Positions 6,693 to 64,000 of a stretch of 64,000 nt of DNA are shown here, piece by piece. Under the pieces are notes generated by a model that saw only the letters and a list, made by a program, of their open reading frames with translations, was not told the DNA's origin and made no database searches. The position numbers and the translations under genes are program-made. How positions within the stretch are numbered: position 1 is the stretch's first letter; each line of letters opens with the position of its first letter. The stretch comes from Podarcis bocagei (taxonomy: Eukaryota): the NCBI GenBank assembly GCA_964188305.1, contig OZ076889.1; one strand, given 5' to 3'.

Positions 6693-9044
6693 GCAGTGCT
6701 CAAGGGGAGAAATCATGTTAATATCTCACATCCTCCCTCTTGAAAGGATGCATATGTCTCTATGTGCATTGAGCTGGACTTTAATCCTGAAATATAGTTT
6801 TTAGCATATTGCCAAACAGAATGCTGAATGGGGAAATTAAAGCCAAAGCCCCCTTTTAACTAAACTGGTTAATGAATTGCTGGTCGATAATAAATTTCTC
6901 AGTCTTTAAGGTGCTGTTAGACTCTTACCCCTCTCTGCTCCTCTTGTATGGATGTCAATCATTCCTGATGTATCTCTTTGCCATTGAATAAATAGCAATG
7001 TGTGATAATGATTGTGTGAAGTGTCACTAGTTCTTCTCGAGAAACCAAGGAATTTTGGTTTGTGTGGCTGAACGAAAAATTCACAGGCAATATGCATTTT
7101 AAGTCCCCATTCCACATTCCTCCAGGTTACTCTGCTGCTCTTTTTTGTCCCCCTCTGGAAATGTTCACGTTACACATGCTTGAAGGTTTCTTCTGATTTA
7201 CCAGGCACTCAGCTATTGATTCTTTTTCTTCTGCAGCAGATTCTTCATATTGATCTTTTCAGGGACAAAGTTCATTAAGGGTGCGGACGTTTCAGAGCTC
7301 TTCTGTAAAATAGTTTCATTCCCTTCCTCACTTCTAGTGCTGTTATCTCACAAAGAAAGTGATTTTTCCCCTTCTCTCTTGAATTTAGTGATAGGTCAGA
7401 AAGCACAAATCTTGTTCTTTCCACTGAAAAGTATATTTTCTATGGGATAGATTCTTAACTGGGGAATAGTTTTCTGGGTGCATTAGAAAAATGTCTACTG
7501 TGCATACATTGGACACTTTCCTCTGCAAAGAGAGAGGACAAATTAAACCCAGGATTTTGTTCTGCCGTGTGACTAGTTAAGGTATTCATATTGCAGTTGT
7601 TCTCTTCTGCTAAACCTCTCTTCTGCTGCTTTGCAGCATCCAAGTGATGTTCAAGTTAGGAAAGAAAATGTATTAATAACTAATTTAGATTCTGAAACAC
7701 TGAGAGCCACGTAGCTAGAGCACTTGATTGCATGTGAAGAGATGTGGTTGGATGTGCTCAGTTCACTTATATAAAATGTGGATCTCAGGTGGTGGAAGCC
7801 CAAAAGCAGTTGAACCAAGAGCTACACACATAAAAGTAATCCACAGAAGTGGGAAGATCTGAAATGCATGGACTATGAGAATTCATCTACTCTGAAATGT
7901 GTTTTACTTAGTCATCGGATGGGGAAACCTATGCATGTTAGCATTGGGTTTTGTGCTAAAGGTCTACTACATGTTTGGCAAACCTAATTTTTTATCACTA
8001 CTACCTCCTGCCACAACAACTCAATGGCATAGCAACCTTTGTTTTCTCCAGCAACTTTGGAGTGAAGAAACTTGAACATCTGAAAGAAGTGAGGATCGAA
8101 TGGATGATAGACAGATGGGTAGATCTTCCTCTTCAAGCCTTTGCTGCTGGCCAGGTATGATACCTGGTTTAGGACTTAGTTGATCTGACTTTTCTGCCTA
8201 CTTGGCCTTAGCCTTCGAGCAACCATTACGAAAGAAAGGAGGAGCACTTTGCTGGTATCTGAGTCAGTGGGTTTTTGTTCTGCGTTTTCCATTGTCAAGG
8301 CTTCTTGCCTTGAGTTGCTGTCCCTAATCTCATCTATCTTCTCTTGTCTTTGCTCTTCCCCTTCCTTGATCCTATTGGAGCAAAACCCCATCAAAGCATA
8401 CTTCCCTAGCACTGAGACTATGGCACTGTGCAAGATTTGACACTGAAATGTGCTGGCCCCTGACATCAGAGCTGTCCCCTTCACTGGAAAACTGAAAAGT
8501 ACAAGGATTTGTTGGGGGCTGGGATCTGGCAGCTAGCTTTTCACACATTCTTTTCTCTCACTTTTGTATCAACAGTGGGGTAGGAGAGCTGAAAATAATG
8601 CCAACATATTTCACATCTGGTAACCAATGCGCTCCTTTGGTTTCAGATAGTACGGTGATTCTAAAAAGAAGTATGCATGTCTACTCGATTATGACCAAAC
8701 TAAGCCCCCCTAGAGCAAAATATACACTAGGAGCCTTAATTTAATCTGAATTGAGTATACACTTTCCAGTGTCAATGCTAAATACATCACTTCTGGTAAA
8801 TGAACCACCATAGCCGCTAGAGGGCTGTGAAAATTTGAGTCATGGGCTTTTTAGACTCATCTATCCATGTACTATCTGAAACCAAAGGAGCACATTTCCA
8901 AATCCAAAGTTACTCAAAGGCCATAAGAACAGGCCAATACGGGAGTGTTAAGTGGAGTCACCACAGAATTAATTCATATTTTGATCAGGAATGTTGAGTC
9001 TGACCCCCTCCTCCTGTAGTCCTCATAGAACTCTAGCCCAATGG

Positions 9045-9183
9045 TTGCCATTAATTTGATTCTGAATTGATTTTAGAATGTATTTTAATTAATTGATTGT
9101 GATTTTATGTAAACTGTGCTATTTTTATTTTTGTTAGCTGCCCTGAGCCCGGCTTTGGCTGGGAAGGGCGGGATATAAATAAA

Positions 9184-9249
<66 letters not shown>
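9045..9249 (+). mobile_element. L2-like 3' tail with (ATT)n microsatellite
   Basis: GCTGCCCTGAGCCC...GGGCGGGATATAAATAAA followed by (ATT)n at 9184-9249. Confidence 0.6.
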
Positions 9250-9285
9250 TTGCCTCCAAGAAAATGAAACAGTTGGTGCTAAAAC

Positions 9286-9427
9286 CATGGGCATAGCCAG
9301 GATTTTTGTTAGGGTGGCAGGCCTTATGTTAGGGGGGACAGAACTTCAGTTAGCTATGTTTTTAAATTGATTTTTATTGATTTTGCAGGGACAGTTGCCC
9401 CCCCACCCCCCCTTGGCTACGCCCATG
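9286..9427. mobile_element. hAT-like MITE
   Basis: TIRs CATGGGCATAGCCAGG / CTTGGCTACGCCCATG; TSD not convincingly preserved. Confidence 0.6.
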
Positions 9428-10998
9428 CCAGACCTCTGCAGACTCATGTAGGTTGGGATGATAAAGTTTTGCACTTTGGGTTTTTATTGCTTGTTCCCCT
9501 TCTCTTTTTTGTGGTTTGAGGGATGAAAACACAGCTTTGTGTTACCACATTTATATTTTCAAGTTCCTGTAAATGAATGTTGTTGATTCCCAGCCCCCTC
9601 CCCCTTTTGGGCTATAGACTATGATGTCTGGCTCCCAGCAGAAGAAACCCAAACAGTCATTACAAGGGAGGCAAAGGTGGTCAGTTGAAGTAGAGCAAAT
9701 TCAAGTGGGGAATCCCCTCCATTTCCCCCCAGCTGACTAATGCCACATTCTAGTGAGTTAGGTGATAGCTCTGACCCCTATAAAACTTCCTGGCTCTTAC
9801 TATTTAGAGGGACTTCTGTCTGCAGTCTGCTTCATTCAGTTCTTGCCCTTAGGTGGAGAGGAGGCTGGACCTGACAATAGTTTGCTGCCAGCAAACAACT
9901 GCTGGAACAGTCGTCTGAGAGCCTAGCAGGTGGGGCCTGCTATCAACGACAGAATGAGGTTCACAGGGACTTGCTTAAAATGCCATTTTTCAGCTGGCCA
10001 GAGGAGAGATTGCTAAAAGAAAGTGATCATCTCTTTGTTGCCATACTTCTCTCTATTTGGCTTCTTTTGAAATCCAAGAAGCTATCAGCACAGGTGATGA
10101 TAGCATCTCTGAATTATTAGCTGTGAACATAATATTTAGTATGCTGGGGATTTTTGTGTGTCACAACAAAGTCTGCTGTCCCTTTTGTGTCGTCGAAAGA
10201 GGAGGAAAGACAGTCTCCTAGGGAGATAATTGAAGCTGATTCTTTTTTAAAATGCTGTTCAGTAGACAATACAGGGAGAAAATTATATGCAACAAACAAA
10301 AGAAGAAATGCTACTTGCCATCTTGCCCCCACTTCCCTCCTTTCAAGTTTGAAGTACAGTCTACACTCTTGTTTTAAGTGTCAGTTAGGGAAATATTTCT
10401 GCATCTGTTACCATGGCAAAGGGTGCCTTTCATTGCAAAGTGATGGACCTCAGAACCATTTTGTGAAATTAAGAAATTAATGTTGCTAGAATGGAGCACG
10501 GGTGACTCAGAAGCAAAATGGAAAAAGGAGAAAGCAGAAAGTGGCTTATTCATGGGATGAAGTGTGTTTTTTTGGGGGGGGAGAAGTGCCAACAATTTCG
10601 CAACAAAAGACACTTAGGTATTTCAATAACCATGGAAAGAATCAACTCCTGGTTTAGCAGGGCCAGATTATCTCTACCTACATAAGACTCTACTGAAATC
10701 CAGTGCAAAGTGCCCATAGCTTAATGCTGCATGCTGAAGATCTCAAGTTAATATTAGGGTTTTCCAGGTACCTGGGCTAGAAAGGACCATCTTCCTAAGA
10801 TTCTGGCTGGCAAGAACCCTCCAGAAGAGACTCAGCTAGATATATAAATTCAGACACTGGTCCTTAACAGTTTCATAAAGTGCCTGTTCTGAAAGACCAA
10901 AGCTTGAAAGATTATTCAAAGAAGTCACAGGTAAGAACATTTGGTTCCAAATTAATGGAAGGTCTACCTAGAGGTCTACCGAGGCAGCACAAACTTTA

Positions 10999-38729: not shown

Positions 38730-40530
38730 GTTGGAATACAACTCCCATCATTTCTGGCTGTTGGTCATACTAGGTGGGGGTGATGCAAATTGAATGTCCG
38801 ACACTAGGCTCTTTTAAACTGTCTGTGTGTGTTATTGTTTCTTATTATGCCATGTATTTTTGTGTTTTTATATTGTAAACCGCCCTGTGATCTTTGGATG
38901 AAGGGCAGTACTGAAATTTTAACAACAACAGCAGCAGCAACAGATCAGCTTCCGGTTCTGGTCTGCCTTAATAGAGGCAGCTCCCACGACAGCAGGAGAT
39001 CATTGACGAAGGAAAAACAGGGATGATTGAGGGTAATTATCCTTGCAAGATTTCCCCAAGGACAGGGATAGAACCTCTATCCAACATGAACAGAAATTAT
39101 TAATATTGCAGTTGTTGTATAAGGGATCGCTATTTTGACTGGAATGTAATAGAAATTAATAAGATTTTGGAACTCAGAAATAAATCATATAATTTGATAT
39201 TTGAATGATTGGCATTAGTAATTGTATTATAATTTGGTATTGTTATAATGAGGCTATTATTGGATTGTAATTGAAAATTAATAAAAAATATTATTAAAAA
39301 ACCCCAATAGCAACATCTGGAGGCTACCATATTCACTACCCCAGTGATTGACTAACAACTACTTTACAATCCTCTGTTTCTAGGGCTGTTTGGTCTAAGT
39401 CCATTAGCAGCTAAAGAACCATAAGAAGAAAGATCAGGGACCCTGAATTTGTCCATCAACACTCAGCACCCAGACAACAGAGAGACGAGGCACACAGTCC
39501 ACCTGGTTAGGGTCACCTCCACTATGGTGAGATGTACTGCATTTCTCTTTAAGGCATAGCAATGATTTCTTAATTTTCAACTATACATATACATCAGCAC
39601 ACACACATTGTATGCAGATATGTGCTCACTCATGCCTTCTTTTTTATGTTGGTTGCCTCTATTCTGGCGATGCATAAGTGACCACCCTAAGAAGGGTTGT
39701 AAAAACAAAGAAACCAGGGTATGGTCTAAAAGCAGATGAGGCCACCACCATGCTGAAGCTAAGCAGGTCTATGTCTGGTCAATAGCTGGATGGGTGACTT
39801 CCTGGGGACCACATGTATGACAGGAAGAAGGTGGGAATATAAATGTATGGGGGGGGAAGCAACTTAAGAGGACAAGTTCTAATATGACCCCTTGAATACA
39901 TATTGTACAATGTAAGAACCTGCAGGTAAAAACAGGGGCCAAGAATCTAACCAACTTCAAGGAGGGCTTTCAAGTAGAAGAATGTGTAAATCGCTTCCTT
40001 CTATCAGTCCATGTTGTGCTTTCATGACCGTATATTACAAATCATCACTAAAAGCATTCCCTACTGTCATTAAGACTCCATTTTTCAGAAGAAAAATCAT
40101 TTGCCTTGTCACTGTATTTTAAATGCCAGCTGGGGAAGGCCATGAGAGATTTCCAATAATCAGTATGCGAGGGAGTATGGGATTCAGTAATAAACCGAAC
40201 CACTTATCTGAACCATTTTCTCATTCAGTATATTAGGCTAGATTTTCAAAACATGTCATTTTCAAAGCATTTAGATTCCCCTCAGGTGAATGAACATACC
40301 GTATTTTTCGGACTATTGGACGCACCGGTCCATAGGACGCACCTAGATTTGGGGGGGGGGGGAAATAAAGGCAAAAAATTTTTATCCCCCCCCCGCCAGG
40401 CGCGGGGCTGGGGCGGGGAAGCCCGAGCTTCCCCCTCCCCCAGAACGGGACCCAGAGCCATGCCGAAGCTGCGCGCAGCTTTGGCATCGCTCTGGGAGCT
40501 TGCGGGGCTGGGGGAGGAGGAAGCCTTCCG

Positions 40531-41300
40531 CCAGCCTCCAAACCATGTCGGGAGACAGCGGGATGGCGCGCTGCGCCTCTCCTGCTGTCCCCCGAGTTTG
40601 CGGGGCTGGGCCAGCCTTCTAACCAAGTCGGGGGACAGCGGGAAGGGCGCGCTGCGCCCCTGCCGCTGTCTCCCGAGTTTGCGGGGCTGGCGACGGGGAG
40701 GAGCAGGCTTCTCCCCCCGCCAGCCTTCTAACCAAGTCGGGGGACAGCGGCAAAGGCGCGCTGCCCCCTGCCGCTGTCTCCCGAGTTTGCGGGGCTGGCG
40801 ACGGGAAGGAGCAGGCTTCTCCCCCCGCCAGCCTTCTAACCAAGTCGGGGGACAGCGGCAAAGGCGCGCTGCCCCCTGCCGCTGTCTCCCGAGTTTGCGG
40901 GGCTGGCAATGGGGAGGAGCAGGCTTCTCCCCCCGCCAGCCTTCTAGACAAGTCGGGGGACAGCGGGAAAGGTGCGCTGCGCCTCTCCCGCTGTCCCCCG
41001 AGTTTGCGGGGCTGGCGACGGGGAGGAGCAGGCTTCTCCCCCCGCCAGCCTTCTAGCCAAGTCGGGGGACAGCGGGAAAGGCGCGCTGCGCCTCTCCCGC
41101 TGTCTCCCGAGTTTGCGGGGCTGGCGACGGGGAGGAGCAGGCTCCCCCTCCCCCAGCCTTCTAACCAAGTCGGGGGACAGCGGGAATGGCGCGCTGCGCC
41201 TCTCCCGCTGTCTCCCGAGTTTGCGGGGCTGGTGACGGGGAGGAGCAGGCTCCCCCCCAGCCTTCTAACCAAGTCGGGGGACAGCGGGAAGGGCGCGCTG
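40531..41300. repeat. GC-rich minisatellite A (about 108-bp unit, about 7 copies)
   Basis: CAGCCTTCTAACCAAGTCGGGGGACAGCGG unit starts near 40612, 40721, 40829, 40937, 41046, 41154 and 41258. Confidence 0.95.
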
Positions 41301-41302
41301 AA

Positions 41303-42085
41303 GCCTGGAGGTTGTGGGGCTGGTGGGGGGGAGAAGCAGGATCGCCGCCATCCCGCTATTCCCCGACCTGATCTGGAGGTTGTGGGGCTGGGGGGGGGGG
41401 AGAAGCAGGCTTGCTTCTCCCACCCCCAGCCTCCAGATCAGGTCGGGGAATAGCGGGATGGCGGAGCGCTGCCATCCCGCTATTCCCCGACCTGATCTGG
41501 AGGTTGTGGGGATGGTGGGGGGGGAGAAGCAGGCTTGCTTCTCCCACCCCCAGCCTCCAGATCAGGTCGGGGAATAGCGGGATGGCGGAGCGCTGCCATC
41601 CCGCTATTCCCCGACCTGATCTGGAGGTTGTGGGGATGTGGGGGGGGAGAAGCAGGCTTGCTTCTCCCACCCCCAGCCTCCAGATCAGGTCGGGGAATAG
41701 CGGGATGGCGGCGCTTCGCCATCCCCCTATCCCCCGAACTTGTGGGGCTGGGGGGGGGGGAGAAGCAGGCTTGCTTCTCCCACCCCCAGCCTCCAGATCA
41801 GGTCGGGGAATAGGGGGATGGCGGAGCGCCGCCATCCCGCTATTCCCCGACCTGATCTGGAGGTTGTGGGGATGTGGGGGGGGGGAGAAGCAGGCTTGCT
41901 TCTCCCACCCCAGCCTCCAGATCAGGTCGGGGAATAGCGGGATGGCGGCGCTTCACCATCCCCCTATCCCCCGAGCTTGTGGGGCTGGGGGGGGGAGAAG
42001 CAGGCTTGCTTCTCCCCCCGCCAGCCTCCAGATCAGGTCGGGGAATAGCGGGGTGGCGGCTCTGCGCCTCGCCGCTGTCCCCAGC
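41303..42085. repeat. GC-rich minisatellite B (about 111-124-bp unit, about 6 copies)
   Basis: CAGCCTCCAGATCAGGTCGGGGAATAGCGGGATGGC unit starts near 41427, 41551, 41673, 41787, 41911 and 42022. Confidence 0.95.
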
Positions 42086-44649
42086 TTTTGGGTGCAGGCT
42101 GCTGCCCGCAAGCCTTGCGAGCCCGCGGGACATCCCGCCGGGCTTGCAAGACTTGGGATAGCTTCCTGAAGCCTGGAGAGCGAGAGGGGTCGGTGCGCAC
42201 GGACCCCTCTCGCTCTCCAGGCTTCAGCAAAAGCCTGCATTCGCACCATAGGACGCACACACATTTCCCCTTCATTTTTGGAGGGGAAAAAGTGCGTCCT
42301 ATAGTGCGAAAAATACGGTACTTTCTCACATCGTGAAATTGGCCCTGTGGAGGACAACTAGAACCAGTTTTGTGTCCTTTAGAAAGACAATAAACAGTCA
42401 AGTTTCACTTCAGGATCACACCAACTTACTCTCTGATCACCATCTGGGCTGCTGTAAACAGTCTCACTCCTCATCTTCCTGCTGCCTCCATCCTCCTTTT
42501 TGTGATATTGTTGAGGTCTTCCTCCTCGCTGCCCTTTCTCTCTCCTCCTGCTTCTTTTCTCCTCGTTCTGCATGAGCTGTAGCAGTATCAACAGTTTTCC
42601 CACTGGCCCACCCAACTCCTTCTCCTGCCCTAGTGTCTCCTGCTGAGGAAGAGTTAATAGGGAGTCAACATCCTTTCAGTAAACAGAATCAAACCCCAAC
42701 TGCCTTTGGTGGCATGGAGGGGAATTTGTAACTTTTGACCAGGTCCCCAGTGGGGAAAGTTTAGCTTGTGGATTTGAAGGGAAACCTGTGAAAACTGGGC
42801 CAGCGAAAATGTAGGCTGAGAAATAAATGGAAGGGGGGGGGGAATTGGAGGGTCATCCTGTTTGAAGAATCAAATACATTTCCTGTTGTCCATTGCCCCA
42901 ACCTGCCTGCCCTCCTCGCATAGATGGCCGCGGCTGTATAATTGATGCTGCGGTGTAGTCTGAAGGATTCTGTCAAGATTGGCAGGACAGATGCCACTCA
43001 GCCCTAGCTTTTGGGCCATTGCCTCATTGTCAGAAGTGACACTTTCACGAGCTCATTTATTGCATTGTTGCTCCCCTAAGTGATTGCCAATGATGGGATT
43101 TATAGGTGCGCGTTCAGGAGTGGCTAGATGAGATGGGCTTTCTCTTCTCTTCTCCATCCCTCCCCCCCCGCCACCTCCACCTTCACTCGTATTAATTCCA
43201 AAGTTACTGCCAATGAATAGTTGTATCCAGATTGATGGGCAGCGTACTATAATTACCTGTCAGAGACATGGACCACTTGATGCTGGAAGCTGGACTTTGA
43301 TGGAGGCGCTACAGGGGAGGCGAGGAGGGCGAAACTGAAATTGACAACATTGCAGCTCTGCTTGCATCTGCTTATTTCTTTGCAGATAAGCTGTTTGTGT
43401 TAACTTGAGCATTTTTTTAAATGAAAAAAACCAAAAACCCAGCACCTTACATTTTGCTATCTACAATTCCCCCACCGCCGGACTTAATTATAGGATTATA
43501 ATTGCCAATTAAGCGATAAGTCTTGTATTCCTGGGTCACTGTGCATGAATCTGATGCAATGTGCATGGGGGGGGGGGAGAGAAAGAGAATCAGACTGAAT
43601 GCACTCTCCAATATTTCTAAGTCATTCTCAGCTAATCTGGTTTTTAGTTGAGAGCCGGTGTGGTTAGATGATCTGACTAAGATGGAGGAAACCCAGCCAT
43701 TGCACTTGTTGGGTGATTTGGGGTGAATTGCCATTGTTCACAGGGTTGTTGGGAGGGTAAAATGGAATATGGAAGAACCATCTATGGTGCCTTGAGATCC
43801 TTGAAAGAAAAGTGGAATATAAAATGTGCTACATAAATAAATAAATAAATATAAGGGCTGTGCATGGAACCCTTAATCAACCTTGTATCTATACTCCCCC
43901 CCCCCCCCATCCAGTGGTAGCGTATTCTGTTTTGCCACCAGCAGAAAAGCAGAGCTGGCATCAGCACCTATTTCAGGTGAGTTTCCTGAGGTCTCAGTGC
44001 TCCACAAGATGTTGCATGATTTTGGCGAGATCTTGATGGTAATCAGCACGATCTTGTCCAAAACTGGCACCGCTGCCAGCACTGCTTCCCTGTGGGTGGT
44101 GGAGGTGGCAGGGCAGATGGGGCACCCATGGGGGGGGGCCCTCATCCCACCTAATGGCTGCACTGCCCCCCTCTCCATCTGTTAATTTCTGATCTCTTTC
44201 TTTGTTGTTCTCTCTGCTTCGATTTGTGATTTACATTTTGAGGCACTCGTCGTAAAATGAAGCTGCTTGTTGCCTATTCAATCTTACAAGGAACCCTTAA
44301 AATTACTATCATTTCCCTCCTTTTGCCAGAATCAGAAGCTTACAGGCTCAGGAGCCCCTCCAGAGTGGATTAAATCTGCCAAATTGCAGGTTCAGGGATT
44401 TATTTATTTTGGGGAGGGAGGAGAAGTAAAAGGAAGCCGCTTTCCTCCATAACCTATATTAAGGCAATACTTTTATTAAGCCGACTGAAAGTGCAAACTC
44501 CATATTAGTTTCATATTTTTAAGGGGAGGAGTGGGGGTTCTCTCTTGCTCTTCTATGCCTTAGAAATAATTAAAAAGTCTTTGCGTGTACTTAAATAAAA
44601 CAAAACATTAGCAGCTTCTCACCAGCTGCCTTAGAATTTTGGTATTTGC

Positions 44650-50947: not shown

Positions 50948-51405
50948 TGTTGTTGTTGTTTAGTCATTTAGTCGTGTCCGACTCTTCGTGACCCCATGGA
51001 CCAGAGCACGCCAGGCACTCCTGTCTTCCACTGCCTCCCGCAGTTTGGTCAGACTCATGTTTGTAGCTTCGAGAACACTGTCCAACCATCTCATCCTCTG
51101 TCGTCCCCGTCTCCTTGTGCCCTCCATCTTTCCCAACATCAGGGTCTTTTCCAGGGAGTCTTCTCTTCTCATGAGGTGGCCAAAGTATTGGAGCCTCAGC
51201 TTCAGGATCTGTCTTTCCAGTGAGCACTCAGGGCTGATTTCCTTAAGAATGGATGCGTTTGATCTTCTTGCAGTCCATGGGACTCTCAAGAGTCTCCTGC
51301 AGCACCATAATTCAAAAGCATCAATTCTTTGGCGATCAGCCTTCTTTATGGTCCAGCTTTCACTTCCATACATCACTACTGGGAAAACCATGGCTTTAAC
51401 TATAC
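50948..51405 (-). mobile_element. Bov-B (RTE) LINE 3' fragment
   Basis: ORF MVFPVVMYGSESWTIKKADRQRIDAFELWC.RRLLRVPWTARRSN...; 12-bp TSD GGCCTCTAAGTT. Confidence 0.95.
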
Positions 51406-54543: not shown

Positions 54544-54658
54544 GAATTTTTTAAATTCAGATTTAGTTTTTTGAATTTTTTAAATTCAGATTTAGTTTTT
54601 TGAATTTTTTAAATTCAGATTTAGTTTTTTGAATTTTTTAAATTCAGATTTAGTTTTT
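54544..54658. repeat. 29-bp AT-rich tandem repeat x4
   Basis: GAATTTTTTAAATTCAGATTTAGTTTTTT at 54544, 54573, 54602 and 54631. Confidence 0.95.
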
Positions 54659-60711: not shown

Positions 60712-61252
60712 ATATCTCTTTCTTCCCTAAATGGAGAGTTGAGAGGGTGTGTGTGTGTGTGCGTGTTTGTAGAAACTAGCCTTGTCAACAAAGGTAAACT
60801 TTGCCACCCACATTTGCCTCTGGCCCTGCCCACCACTGGAATGTGGCCCCCAGAATATTTCCTAGAAGCACATGTAGTCCTTAGGCTGGAAAAAAGTACC
60901 TTATGTCCTATGTTCCATTGATTCCAGTGACTCCTGTTAAAATAAATGGGGCTCAACATTGGGCTGAAACATGGCCCATATTTATAACTGGTAAATGTAA
61001 AGCAATGGCCTTTCCACTTTCTGCCTGCATTGATGAAGCCCTTGTGCCCTGTAGAAGATTCTGCAGAGTGTTTTAGACTGAACGCTTGGTCCGTGCAAAG
61101 TCTCATTGTTGTTTCCAACTGACCTGACAGTGACCTAGTACCCCTGAATGCTCTCCTGGGGCCTGCGCATTGTGATGGAGGGATAAGCTGTCATTCTGGG
61201 AAGCTTTTATGTTATTCCTGCTCTTGAAGTGTTGTTGTTTAGTCGTTTAGTC

Positions 61253-62497
61253 CAGTGTTTCCCAACCTTTTTTGGGCAAAGGCACACTTGTTTCATGAAA
61301 AAAATCTCGAGGCACACCACCATGCCAGATGGGGAAAGGTCACTTTTTACCTATGTAAAAAAATATAAAAAAATAGTAACAGCATAGAAGGTAATGGTAA
61401 GCTATAACTTGTTAAGCTTATACCTAAATCCGACACTGATTGGTCTCCCTTCCAAGGCACTCGAGGTCCCACATGAAAGCGAGCCCCCAGCAAGGCCTCG
61501 ACGGCCTGCAAGGCGCTTCCCCTTGCGAGTGGGAAACGGACGGGCGGCGGCCCGAGCACGACCTGGCGCCCTCTCAGCTCAGCGAGCACGACCTGAAAGC
61601 TCTGGCCGCCTCCCTGCACGCCCTCCCGGACCTGGAGTACGGCGGCAGCAGCGCGCCTCCTTCGACGGGCCCCGACGGCAACCACGAGCGGCCCCGTCGG
61701 CGGGCCTCGGCGGCGGACCTCCTGCAGGACAGCTCCAGCTTCGCGCCGGACTACGAGGGCTTCGAGTACCGGGGCGACCCTTACGAGGAGGTGGAGCCGC
61801 TGCGGAACCTGCCTGCCTTTGAAGCGTGCTCGCCGGCCTCGTCTGAGTCCAGCATCGACATCTGCTTCCTGAGGCCCGTCCACTTCACCAACGAGCCCGG
61901 CAGGACGGAGCGCACGCTGCAGCTGCTGCCCAAGAGCGCGGCGCCGACGCCGCAAGCCAGCGGCACCTACAAGCACGAGGTTTTCCGCAGCAAAGGCAAG
62001 CAGCTGAGCCGCTCGCTCAAGGAGTTCCCGCGCAGCAGTGGAGGCGGCGGCGGCTCCGAAGGCATCGCCAGCACCAGGCTGTACAGCACCCGCAGCAGCA
62101 GCGGCAGCCGCCTGCCGGCCCCAACGGAGAGGGGCTTCCCGGCCCACGGCGCCCCCTCCGCCGCCTCCCGGAGCTCCCAGCGGCACCACTTCCCGCCGCC
62201 GAGAGGAGCGGGCGACCAGCCCAGCTTTCTGGAAGTAAGGAGAGCAAAAGGCAAGGGCAAAGGCGCTTCCTAGCCAGGGTCTAAGCGTGCCTATGTGGGG
62301 CACGTTACAGCCCCGTGACGTCAGCGCCACGCAGGCAGCCAGGCAGGCAGACGGCGAGAGCCCCGCACTGGGCGGCCTCTCCTCGCTGCCGCCGCCCCGC
62401 CTCTCGCCGCCCGACTCGCCCGCCTCCCTCCCACGGCACAGCAGGCAACGTCTCGCGGCACACTAGTGTGCCGCGGAACACCGGTTGGGAAACACTG
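61253..62497. mobile_element. non-autonomous hAT (Charlie/Buster-type) carrying a captured exon (Pack-hAT)
   Basis: Perfect 15-bp TIR CAGTGTTTCCCAACC; perfect 8-bp TSD GTTTAGTC with central TA; 22-bp subterminal palindrome at 62454-62475; no transposase motifs. Confidence 0.93.
61457..62234 (+). CDS. captured 778-bp host-like coding exon (about 259 codons, Ser/Pro/Gly-rich, probably disordered); parent gene not recognised
   Basis: Stop-free frame with strong GC3 bias; acceptor CTGAT-TGGTCTCCCTTCCAAG|G and donor GAA|GTAAGG; phase 2 in, phase 0 out. Confidence 0.75.
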
Positions 62498-63796
62498 GTT
62501 TAGTCATGTCCGACTCTTCGTGACCCCCTGGACCAGAGCACGCCAGGCACTCCTGTCTTCCACTGCCTCCCGCAGTTTGGTCAAACTCATGCTGGTAGCT
62601 TCGAGAACACAGTCCAACCATCTCATCCTCTGTCGTCCCCTTCTCCTTGTGCCCTCCATCTTTCCCAACATCAGGGTCTTTTCCAGGGAGTCTTCTCTTC
62701 TCATGAAGTGGCCAAAGTACTGGAGCCTCAGCTTCAGGATCTGTCCTTCCAGTGAGCACTCAGGGCTGATTTCCTTAAGAATAGAGAGGTTTGATCTTCT
62801 TGCAGTCCATGGGACTCTCAAGAGTCTCCTCCAGCACCATAATTCAAAAGCATAAATTCTTTGGCGATCAGCCTTCTTTATGGTCCAGGTCTCACTTTAA
62901 TACATCACTACTGGGAAAACCATAACTTTAACTATACGGACCTTTGTTGGCAAGGTGATGTCTTGAGGTATCCATGATAGTATAAATACAGGGTCAGTCC
63001 TACCGTTAGACTGAATGAGGGAGGTGGCTCAGGCAGCTGGTGTTAGGGGGGTGGCAGAAGTCCTCCCACATAAGCTGAGTTCCCTAAGCTCACTTGCTCT
63101 GAACCTTCTAAGGTAATGTCCGCAGGCACGGCAGAGAATTTTGTCCTGTTTCTAACATTGAAGTAGGATTCAGCTGCCAGTCTGGTTGGATTCTATGTGT
63201 GGAACAGGGAGGGCGCCATTTTGCCTTTCACCTCAGGCACCAAAATGTCTTGGTCCAGCTCCATATTGACATGTAAAACCAAAACCCCAAAACCATCAAC
63301 ATTGTTTCTGATATAATGAATTGGCCTTGCTTTGCGCCAGCTATTTTCCATGCCTCTTTCCAGGCTTCCTCTTCTGTGCTGCCTTGGGCTCTGGCTGCTC
63401 CTATAACTGTGCTGGCAAGCCCCGATAAGTGATAAACTACCCTGCAACAATCTGGATTTATTGAAAGAAGATTCCTGTGGCCTGCATTGTTCCACTTAGT
63501 GCCAGAATGAATAAGTTGCTATTGGACTCCGCCTCCTGTCAGCTGTAGCCAGCATGGTGAATGGCTAGGAATGAAGGGAGCCATAGTTCAATACCATTTG
63601 GAGGGCTGCACCTTCAGCACCTTCATTCACATAACCGCCTGTCTCCACCTCAACAGGTGCTCATGGCTGTGTGTGCAGACCATGCCATCCAGGGCAGGTA
63701 ATGGAGCCAGGAGCCTGTTCACTAAAGCTCATGTTACTTGATGAAACCCAGCTGGGCCATTGGGAAGTATGTGTAGCCCTACCATTAGCTGGTACA

Positions 63797-64000
63797 GGGA
63801 TGCGGGTGGCGCTGTGGGTTAAACCACAGAGCTGGTCAGAAGGTCGGCGGTTCAAATCCGCGCGACGGGGTGAGCGCCCGTTGCTTGGTTCCTGCTCCTG
63901 CCAACCTAGCAGTTCAAAAGCACATCAAAGTGCAAGTAGATAAATATGTACCGCTCCGGTGGGAAGGTAAACGGCGTTTTTGTGCGCTGCTCTGGTTCGC
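63797..64000 (+). mobile_element. Sauria SINE (cut by the window end)
   Basis: GGGATGCGGGTGGCGCTGTGGGTTAAACC head; homologous to the other copies. Confidence 0.9.

Follow-up and report, generated by a model that had tools for sequence, protein, structure and literature searches.

Does the open reading frame towards the end of this 64,000-nt stretch of Podarcis bocagei DNA (hereafter the window) represent a genuine internal exon that was captured with its splice signals, and, if so, was it copied from DNA or from RNA, and is it used by the genes near which its copies have landed? The frame lies within a 1,245-bp non-autonomous hAT element at 61253–62497, and the marks of this superfamily are present as perfect 15-bp terminal inverted repeats and 8-bp target site duplications.

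The element, its exon and the parental gene

The element and its immediate surroundings are made up as follows.

61245..61252, unstranded: left copy of the target site duplication, 8 bp, identical to 62498–62505
61253..61267, plus strand: left terminal inverted repeat, 15 bp, a perfect inverted pair with 62483–62497
61253..61397, plus strand: left arm, common to sister elements with other cargo; 434 exact matches to an 18-nt piece
61398..62287, plus strand: captured ARHGEF33 DNA, 890 nt, consisting of 59 nt of intron, 778 nt of exon and 53 nt of intron
61398..61438, plus strand: right end of an older hAT-like element, co-captured; its other end and 8-bp duplication are in the parent intron
61436..61440, plus strand: branch-like CTGAT whose A is at −18; found in 16 of the 17 copies aligned and absent from this genome's parent
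61444..61456, plus strand: pyrimidine tract plus acceptor AG, which together are the 3′ splice site of the parent
61457..62234, plus strand: penultimate coding exon of ARHGEF33; its 259 codons belong to the C-terminal region and not to the RhoGEF domain
62235..62240, plus strand: donor GTAAGG, taken over from the 5′ splice site of the parent
62271..62273, plus strand: in-frame TAG in the captured intron, present in the parent too
62288..62497, plus strand: right arm, GC-rich, common to sister elements, ending in the inverted repeat 62483–62497
62498..62505, unstranded: right copy of the target site duplication, matching the left copy
62499..62896, minus strand: 3′ part of a LINE, with a reverse-transcriptase-like frame at 62504–62896; a 95 % repeat of 50967–51266

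The insertion site is the tail of this LINE (62499–62896, minus strand), which we take to be of the RTE/BovB type. Elsewhere in the window, GC-rich minisatellite arrays occupy 40200–42300, as they do positions 6885–9870 of locus L045, where the array mimics a CpG island and its host is presumably a Mariner-like miniature element. A 29-bp tandem repeat is present in four copies at 54544–54658, and a SINE, assumed to be of the Sauria type, starts at 63800–64000; locus L024 is an insertion into a SINE of this kind, at the corresponding position.

The preliminary description of this DNA, made from its letters alone, had placed CTGAT at 61436–61440, the acceptor AG at 61455–61456, an exon of 778 nt at 61457–62234, GTAAGG at 62235–62240 and a TAG at 62271–62273. 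All of these coordinates are correct, and the pyrimidine tract contains ten pyrimidines at 61444–61453. The frame is likewise open, as described, from 61458 up to the TAG. A search of the same genome with the element returned 17 full-length matches, one match split by a deletion, one truncated match and the parent locus (G000:C3:94150870-94151760, minus strand), which matches element positions 146–1035 only and is without the element arms. Since 61398–62287 aligns to this ARHGEF33 locus with 97 % identity over 891 columns, the resemblance of the exon is not due to chance. The translation of the parent locus matches ARHGEF33 of Podarcis muralis at 95 % and that of Zootoca at 93 %, and mapping of the whole protein reveals a complete multi-exon gene in which the captured exon is the second-last coding exon.

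The borders predicted from the splice signals, 61457 and 62234, coincide with those of the parental exon. In the parent gene, the second base of a Met codon is the last of the upstream exon, and the exon downstream opens in phase 0; the proposed phase of 2 to 0 is thereby confirmed, and the expectation that an asymmetric exon of 778 nt would cause a frameshift in a recipient is correct. The Zootoca protein (P0004) continues across the captured acceptor border, and the Podarcis protein model is three residues shorter at the acceptor, as if an AG 9 nt further on were used. Eleven codons differ between the parent and the consensus of the copies; outgroup proteins place the changes at residues 48 and 123 on the parent's side and that at residue 35 on the element's. 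A Pfam search with the exon alone returned no family, and no chimeric or stand-alone protein containing the exon was annotated among the lacertid proteins inspected (23 matches of 142–454 aa, and 120 of the 160 longer matches).

The branch-like motif is present as described, with one qualification. This genome's parent reads CTGGT at that position, its target duplication of the older element is perfect, and the position is where the older transposon's end meets that duplication in the parent intron; CTGAT is thus not an established branch point. The 17 aligned copies read CTGAT in 16 cases and CTAAT in one. An origin of CTGAT within the element is doubtful, as a probably parent-type contig of another run (X8) matches the element there; across the motif this parent-like contig shows two differences from the window and no gap. 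The captured ARHGEF33 allele may already have had CTGAT.

Copies, neutral decay and host sites

The left junction is identical at 19 places. Perfect 8-bp target duplications flank all full-length copies (18/18), at 17 distinct sites on 9 contigs, the nearest copy being located ~10.7 Mb from the parent. Two copies, L013 and L014, form one perfect tandem duplicate of 2,252 nt. Segmental duplication was rejected as the source of the copies, as each site has its own target duplication with the exception of this pair. The tree of 17 copies, from which L014 (identical) and L020 (truncated) were left out, is star-like. The one shared junction pair and the star-like tree thus indicate a single origin and one burst.

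The dN/dS comparison that had been proposed for the copies gave no sign of selection on the frame. The 119 distinct changes within the exon comprise 75 nonsynonymous changes, 43 synonymous changes and 1 stop, against 74.3, 43.3 and 1.4, respectively, in a base- and CpG-matched shuffle; the ratio of 1.01 is pooled over 17 copies, such that one selected copy alone would escape. Per copy, 3.2 % of CpG sites have changed and 0.4 % of others. The native frame is open in 14 of the 17 copies, two having a stop and one a frameshifting deletion, which is as expected of young copies and is compatible also with use. In-frame indels are located in triplet repeats. The 24-nt acceptor is intact in 16/17 copies and the 9-nt donor in 17/17, and over all 17 copies the 33 splice-site bases show 1 change versus ~2 expected by chance. 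The splice sites are therefore kept no better than chance, and their intactness reflects youth. As a pool, the exon copies decay neutrally, with no sign of selection on the frame.

A genomic setting was assigned for 4 of the 18 copy sites. The window copy is located ~120 kb downstream of a receptor gene with a 7tm_1 domain, presumably S1PR1-like; crude exon scans of 184 kb around the copy found no other host exons, and its flanks have a mild sense-type skew (+0.072). Copy L012 lies in sense orientation 6.3 kb beyond the BTBD7 stop codon, and L015 precedes a FAM155/NALF-family gene by 5 kb. The L014/L013 pair is in sense orientation within the phase-0 first intron (89 kb) of that gene. Read in the phase of that intron, L013 has stops at codons 174 and 200, so inclusion of the exon would truncate the FAM155/NALF protein. 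Exon 2 of FAM155/NALF is duplicated on contigs C19 and C20 at 98 % identity; the data suggest that these two are sex chromosomes, C19 being the W. Orientation over the 18 sites gave no signal of bias with a strand-skew proxy for which calibration on ARHGEF33 is weak (+0.028). Additionally, copy L010 is followed after 4.9 kb by a vomeronasal-receptor-like frame of the same strand (L222:4941-5507), for which Pfam returns ANF_receptor only at E 0.044, and L010 may adjoin or lie in such a gene.

Sister elements and the route of capture

The 18-nt piece of the left arm is found at 434 places at least, and the search with the element gave 1,188 first-look candidates. The sample of the family consists of 83 elements in which the duplications are perfect and the flanks unique, and it is biased by the queries; 81 of the 83 have TA at target positions 4–5 (nnnTAnnn). 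Greedy clustering, which over-splits somewhat, sorts them into 31 internal layouts with 13.1 kb of distinct sequence, a GC content of 0.61 and a CpG observed/expected ratio of 0.76, compared to 0.45 and 0.32 for the window. Three further parents, all without element ends, lie on other contigs, namely C7, C8 and C12. The C7 parent is a SIX gene (SIX1_SD plus homeodomain), which we take to be SIX5; its cargo begins 733 nt before the ATG and ends mid-exon. A SIX protein search yielded 149 matches from the best 150 of 235 candidates, fragments and paralogues included, and the copies of this cargo number about 100 or more. Another is exon 1 of E2F4/5 on C8, nested in reverse inside a SIX-type element in 2 copies, and the third is a stretch of C12 situated 1.3–2.4 kb upstream of a start codon, with 9 full copies among 40 scored. 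As sister cargos end mid-exon, are reversed or lie upstream of genes, intact splice sites are not a family trait. Serial capture of CpG-rich host DNA by the family is well supported. Among 40 scored matches, crowded by copies, no parent was found for the commonest 837-bp form or for the L084 form, and no autonomous hAT with the same ends was present among 30 of 70 PF05699 transposase loci searched with 1.5 kb of flank each. Contig C19, of 96 Mb, contains many equal-scoring hAT transposase frames, as a large W might have.

Several loci depart from the simple layouts. A piece with an 82–84 % match to the E2F first-exon region (G000:C1:136755347-136756060; L104, L106) adjoins a family left end and other cargo, and is possibly an older, independent capture of a paralogue. 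Two SIX-type elements (L092 and L093, at G000:C2:14.03 and 14.10 Mb) are truncated at one shared position, beyond which come zinc-finger coding sequence and a LINE; they were apparently duplicated along with a zinc-finger cluster. Loci L110–L129 have one right-hand segment, nested left breakpoints (query 30, 257, 638, 965 and 1069) and varied left parts; these breakpoints suggest recombination between family members besides fresh capture.

Capture at the DNA level had been proposed for the exon on account of its flanking splice signals, and the junctions bear this out. Homology to the parent includes 59 nt of intron on the upstream side and 53 nt on the downstream side, and then stops sharply; the cargo contains none of the exon–exon junctions expected of retro-capture. 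The marks of a retrocopy are absent, with intron on both flanks and no poly(A). The cargo opens with 41 nt from the end of the older hAT-like element, which in the parent intron lies 19 nt before the exon, with its other end and 8-bp duplication ~680 nt further upstream. Given that the 5′ junction is inside a transposon of the parent intron, spliced mRNA is impossible as the source. The alignments support the view that the exon was copied directly from genomic DNA.

Microhomology, which had been anticipated at the capture junctions, is slight: relative to the commonest sister it amounts to 1 nt at either junction, or to 3 nt at the right-hand one if a 2-nt slip is allowed. Among sister junctions it is 4 and 5 nt at two and nil at that of E2F. 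With junction microhomology minimal, template switching at capture may be proposed from precedent. The last 11 nt of the left arm (61387–61397) recur at L019:2985-2995, at the far end of the older element and ~600 nt upstream of the junction, a recurrence with a chance of ~1 in 1,000 for the intron as judged post hoc; a two-step switch via this recurrence would leave 5 extra bases, which are absent.

Quite probably, then, the cargo is a true copy of ARHGEF33 exon and intron in a 19-copy non-autonomous hAT element, with template switching as the likely means of its acquisition and with splice sites that are likely neutral passengers. Repair synthesis inside an existing family member would have switched to the ARHGEF33 locus, and polymerisation would have copied 890 nt of it before switching back, thereby replacing an older cargo; a Buster-type transposase acting in trans may then have spread the ARHGEF33-bearing form. 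That the whole exon was taken is likely due to the family picking GC- and CpG-rich stretches of ~0.3–1.6 kb, the exon itself being such a stretch (GC 0.72, CpG observed/expected 0.94). The present copies are losing their CpGs and, where transcribed, seem to yield mostly unspliced read-through RNA.

Two other routes to the same cargo were weighed. Transposase attack on target-like sites at the parent locus could have nicked it and so supplied the repair template. Both ARHGEF33 junctions and the left SIX5 junction are located at or in target-profile octamers (background fractions 0.097, 0.016 and 0.014), and the left arm is broken at one identical base by the ARHGEF33 and the SIX5 captures. However, these make up 3 of 8 junctions examined, the other 5 having no target-like octamer, and shared TA microhomology accounts equally for the octamer data. 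Moreover, hAT transposases cut at octamer edges, whereas the junction cuts are not at such edges, and the idea was conceived post hoc with the sequences already in view; it is regarded as improbable. Reverse transcription of the cargo from unspliced pre-mRNA, with subsequent patching into the element, would explain why the cargo is oriented in the sense of the gene and lies wholly inside the transcription unit, and unspliced parent-type RNA across the acceptor probably exists (X8 contig, 61398–61486). Yet neither the poly(A) nor the exon–exon junction that RNA might have left is present, and the sister cargos include the reversed E2F piece as well as DNA 1.3–2.4 kb upstream of a start codon, which the DNA route covers with one mechanism. 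The pre-mRNA route is thus very improbable, and copying from genomic DNA is retained.

Possible use of the splice sites and relation to known elements

The exon had also been described as splice-ready and liable to be spliced into unrelated transcripts. The first part stands, as the sites are intact in sequence; splicing into hosts and a gene-disrupting role are weakly supported at best. In four raw lacertid RNA runs, of each of which 6–12 % was read and the source of which may be a sister species, no joint or loose end at 61457 or 62234 was among those listed; the contigs drop rare forms, and the ends present number at least those listed, with 90 and 71 loose ends beyond them. RNA depth in these runs is 0–3.4 on the exon versus up to ~200 on the arms. 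Element-type contigs pass the donor unspliced into the right arm in 3 of 3 runs (61732–62316, 61456–62316 and 61879–62316); these runs are RNA-like by guess and have no cover on the unique flank 60900–61223. G-runs downstream often support donors. The four G-runs of the parent intron at +56 to +87 were left uncaptured, with the arm supplying one, and their loss fits read-through at the donor. The element-type contigs carry a common change at 62093 that is found in 0 of the 17 aligned copies, and a single locus in another species or individual may be their source.

At the acceptor, the X1 element-type contig (61398–61638) crosses unspliced, the X2 element-type contig spans 61456–62316 with nothing placed on 61399–61455, and the X8 contig breaks exactly at 61457, yet has the parent's letter at 61561. 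The contig edges of X2 and X8 are at most a weak hint of acceptor use. Most likely, the splice-ready exon is real in sequence and an idle passenger. In a DNA run (X17), a contig coming from the unique flank extends 7 nt into the terminal repeat before it ends; this is below the bridging threshold and hints that the source of that run has the insertion. Between tens and hundreds of RNA reads per run map to the arms (61253–61336 and 62300–62497), two bulk runs show a strand bias there, and the right arm contains a palindrome that is presumably a CRE-like motif. Some family members may be transcribed or located within UTRs.

The strongest competitor to an idle passenger is a portable gene trap, in which some host genes use the acceptor but not the donor, such that their transcripts would end in the element as a new last exon, with truncation of the protein or decay of the RNA as the result. 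The start of the X2 contig (61456–62316) and the X8 break at 61457 would fit such acceptor use, although the X8 break is probably parent mRNA in view of the parent's letter at 61561. The X1 contig (61398–61638) is unspliced over the acceptor, and in run X24 four reads cover 61407–61424 with a depth of 2–3 continuing into the exon. The sense tandem pair within the 89-kb first intron of the FAM155/NALF gene speaks for a trap, but its contig appears to be W-like, where selection is weak. Likewise, the branch-like motif at −18 in 16/17 copies and the openness of two of three frames across the exon in the parent and in 9/17 copies are in favour, while no foreign exon is listed at either splice site and the skew proxy gives no strand bias (11/18 negative, mean −0.014, SE 0.011). 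A gene trap is thus considered unlikely. As this step is the unproven part, it sets the probability of a wider reading, rather unlikely as a whole, in which the lacertid hAT is the vertebrate counterpart of Pack-MULEs, scavenging CpG-island DNA, and its ARHGEF33 form a portable acceptor-only last exon. In that reading, promoters, first exons and GC-rich exons would be spread to hundreds of sites, with truncation of, for example, the sex-linked FAM155/NALF.

Gene capture by vertebrate cut-and-paste elements has been described as mostly single-copy and transposition-independent; this family represents the opposite regime. Capture here is young, high-copy, nested and spread over several chromosomes, and since the junctions can still be read, a single genome offers dozens of events on which to test the mechanism. 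Family members with gene pieces and likely promoters are rarely reported in vertebrates, and no prior report of this hAT family was found in the open literature, as distinct from Repbase/Dfam entries and subscription papers. Scattered CpG-rich promoter and exon DNA, including the ~100 or more partial starts of the presumed SIX5, has to be reckoned with when wall-lizard genes are annotated, reads mapped or methylation studied. What the splice sites cleanly prove is DNA-level capture and not, on present data, exon shuffling; the main interest is the family rather than the single exon.

The closest animal precedents are the Pack-TIRs. In the parts of the survey consulted, Tan et al. 2021 (PMC8277862) count 4 multicopy animal Pack-TIRs among 370, with a median cargo of 224 bp, and describe Pack-hAT-N8_XT, a frog element that carries the CAPSL 5′ UTR in 3 copies; the one lizard surveyed has 0 cases and a library with 0 hAT elements. 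As far as those parts describe them, multicopy Pack-TIRs share with the present element host DNA within hAT ends, GC-rich cargo, an element-free parent elsewhere and separate target duplications at the copies; they also have short microhomology, which is slight in the present element. The features by which Pack-TIRs are recognized, non-TE host DNA within the ends (41 nt of the cargo being of another element), an element-free parent and several copies far from it with distinct target duplications, are all seen here. Pack-TIRs frequently occur in chimeric transcripts with host RNA; the corresponding observation here is of element-type contigs in three RNA-like runs. Judged on its sequence, the element would qualify as a multicopy Pack-TIR, departing in scale and nesting: unlike the survey cases as described, one cargo has 19 copies, another ~100 or more, and many cargos are nested.

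The same source (PMC8277862) relates that a coding exon of human ERP44 and neighbouring intron were co-opted into the GTF2H5 3′ UTR. From that account, the two cases are alike in that a coding exon and parts of both introns were taken at the DNA level, with expression, if any, unspliced; unlike the human case, which is not multicopy, the ARHGEF33 exon has been multiplied by transposition. In plants, Pack-MULEs and Pack-TYPE elements, Pack-hAT among them, contain parts of genes taken from more than one locus (Gisby and Catoni 2022, PMC8903248, in the sections consulted). The present family is a vertebrate family of Pack elements in the plant style, similarly non-autonomous, with pieces of several loci and serial gain of cargo, and differs from the plant elements, so far as those sections go, in being a squamate hAT with a Buster-type target preference. 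The target consensus given for Buster hATs in the excerpt consulted is nnnTAnnn (PMC3517528), which agrees with the 8-bp duplications with TA at positions 4–5 and the short inverted ends found here; the likeness is one of target preference and ends, the element itself being without transposase.
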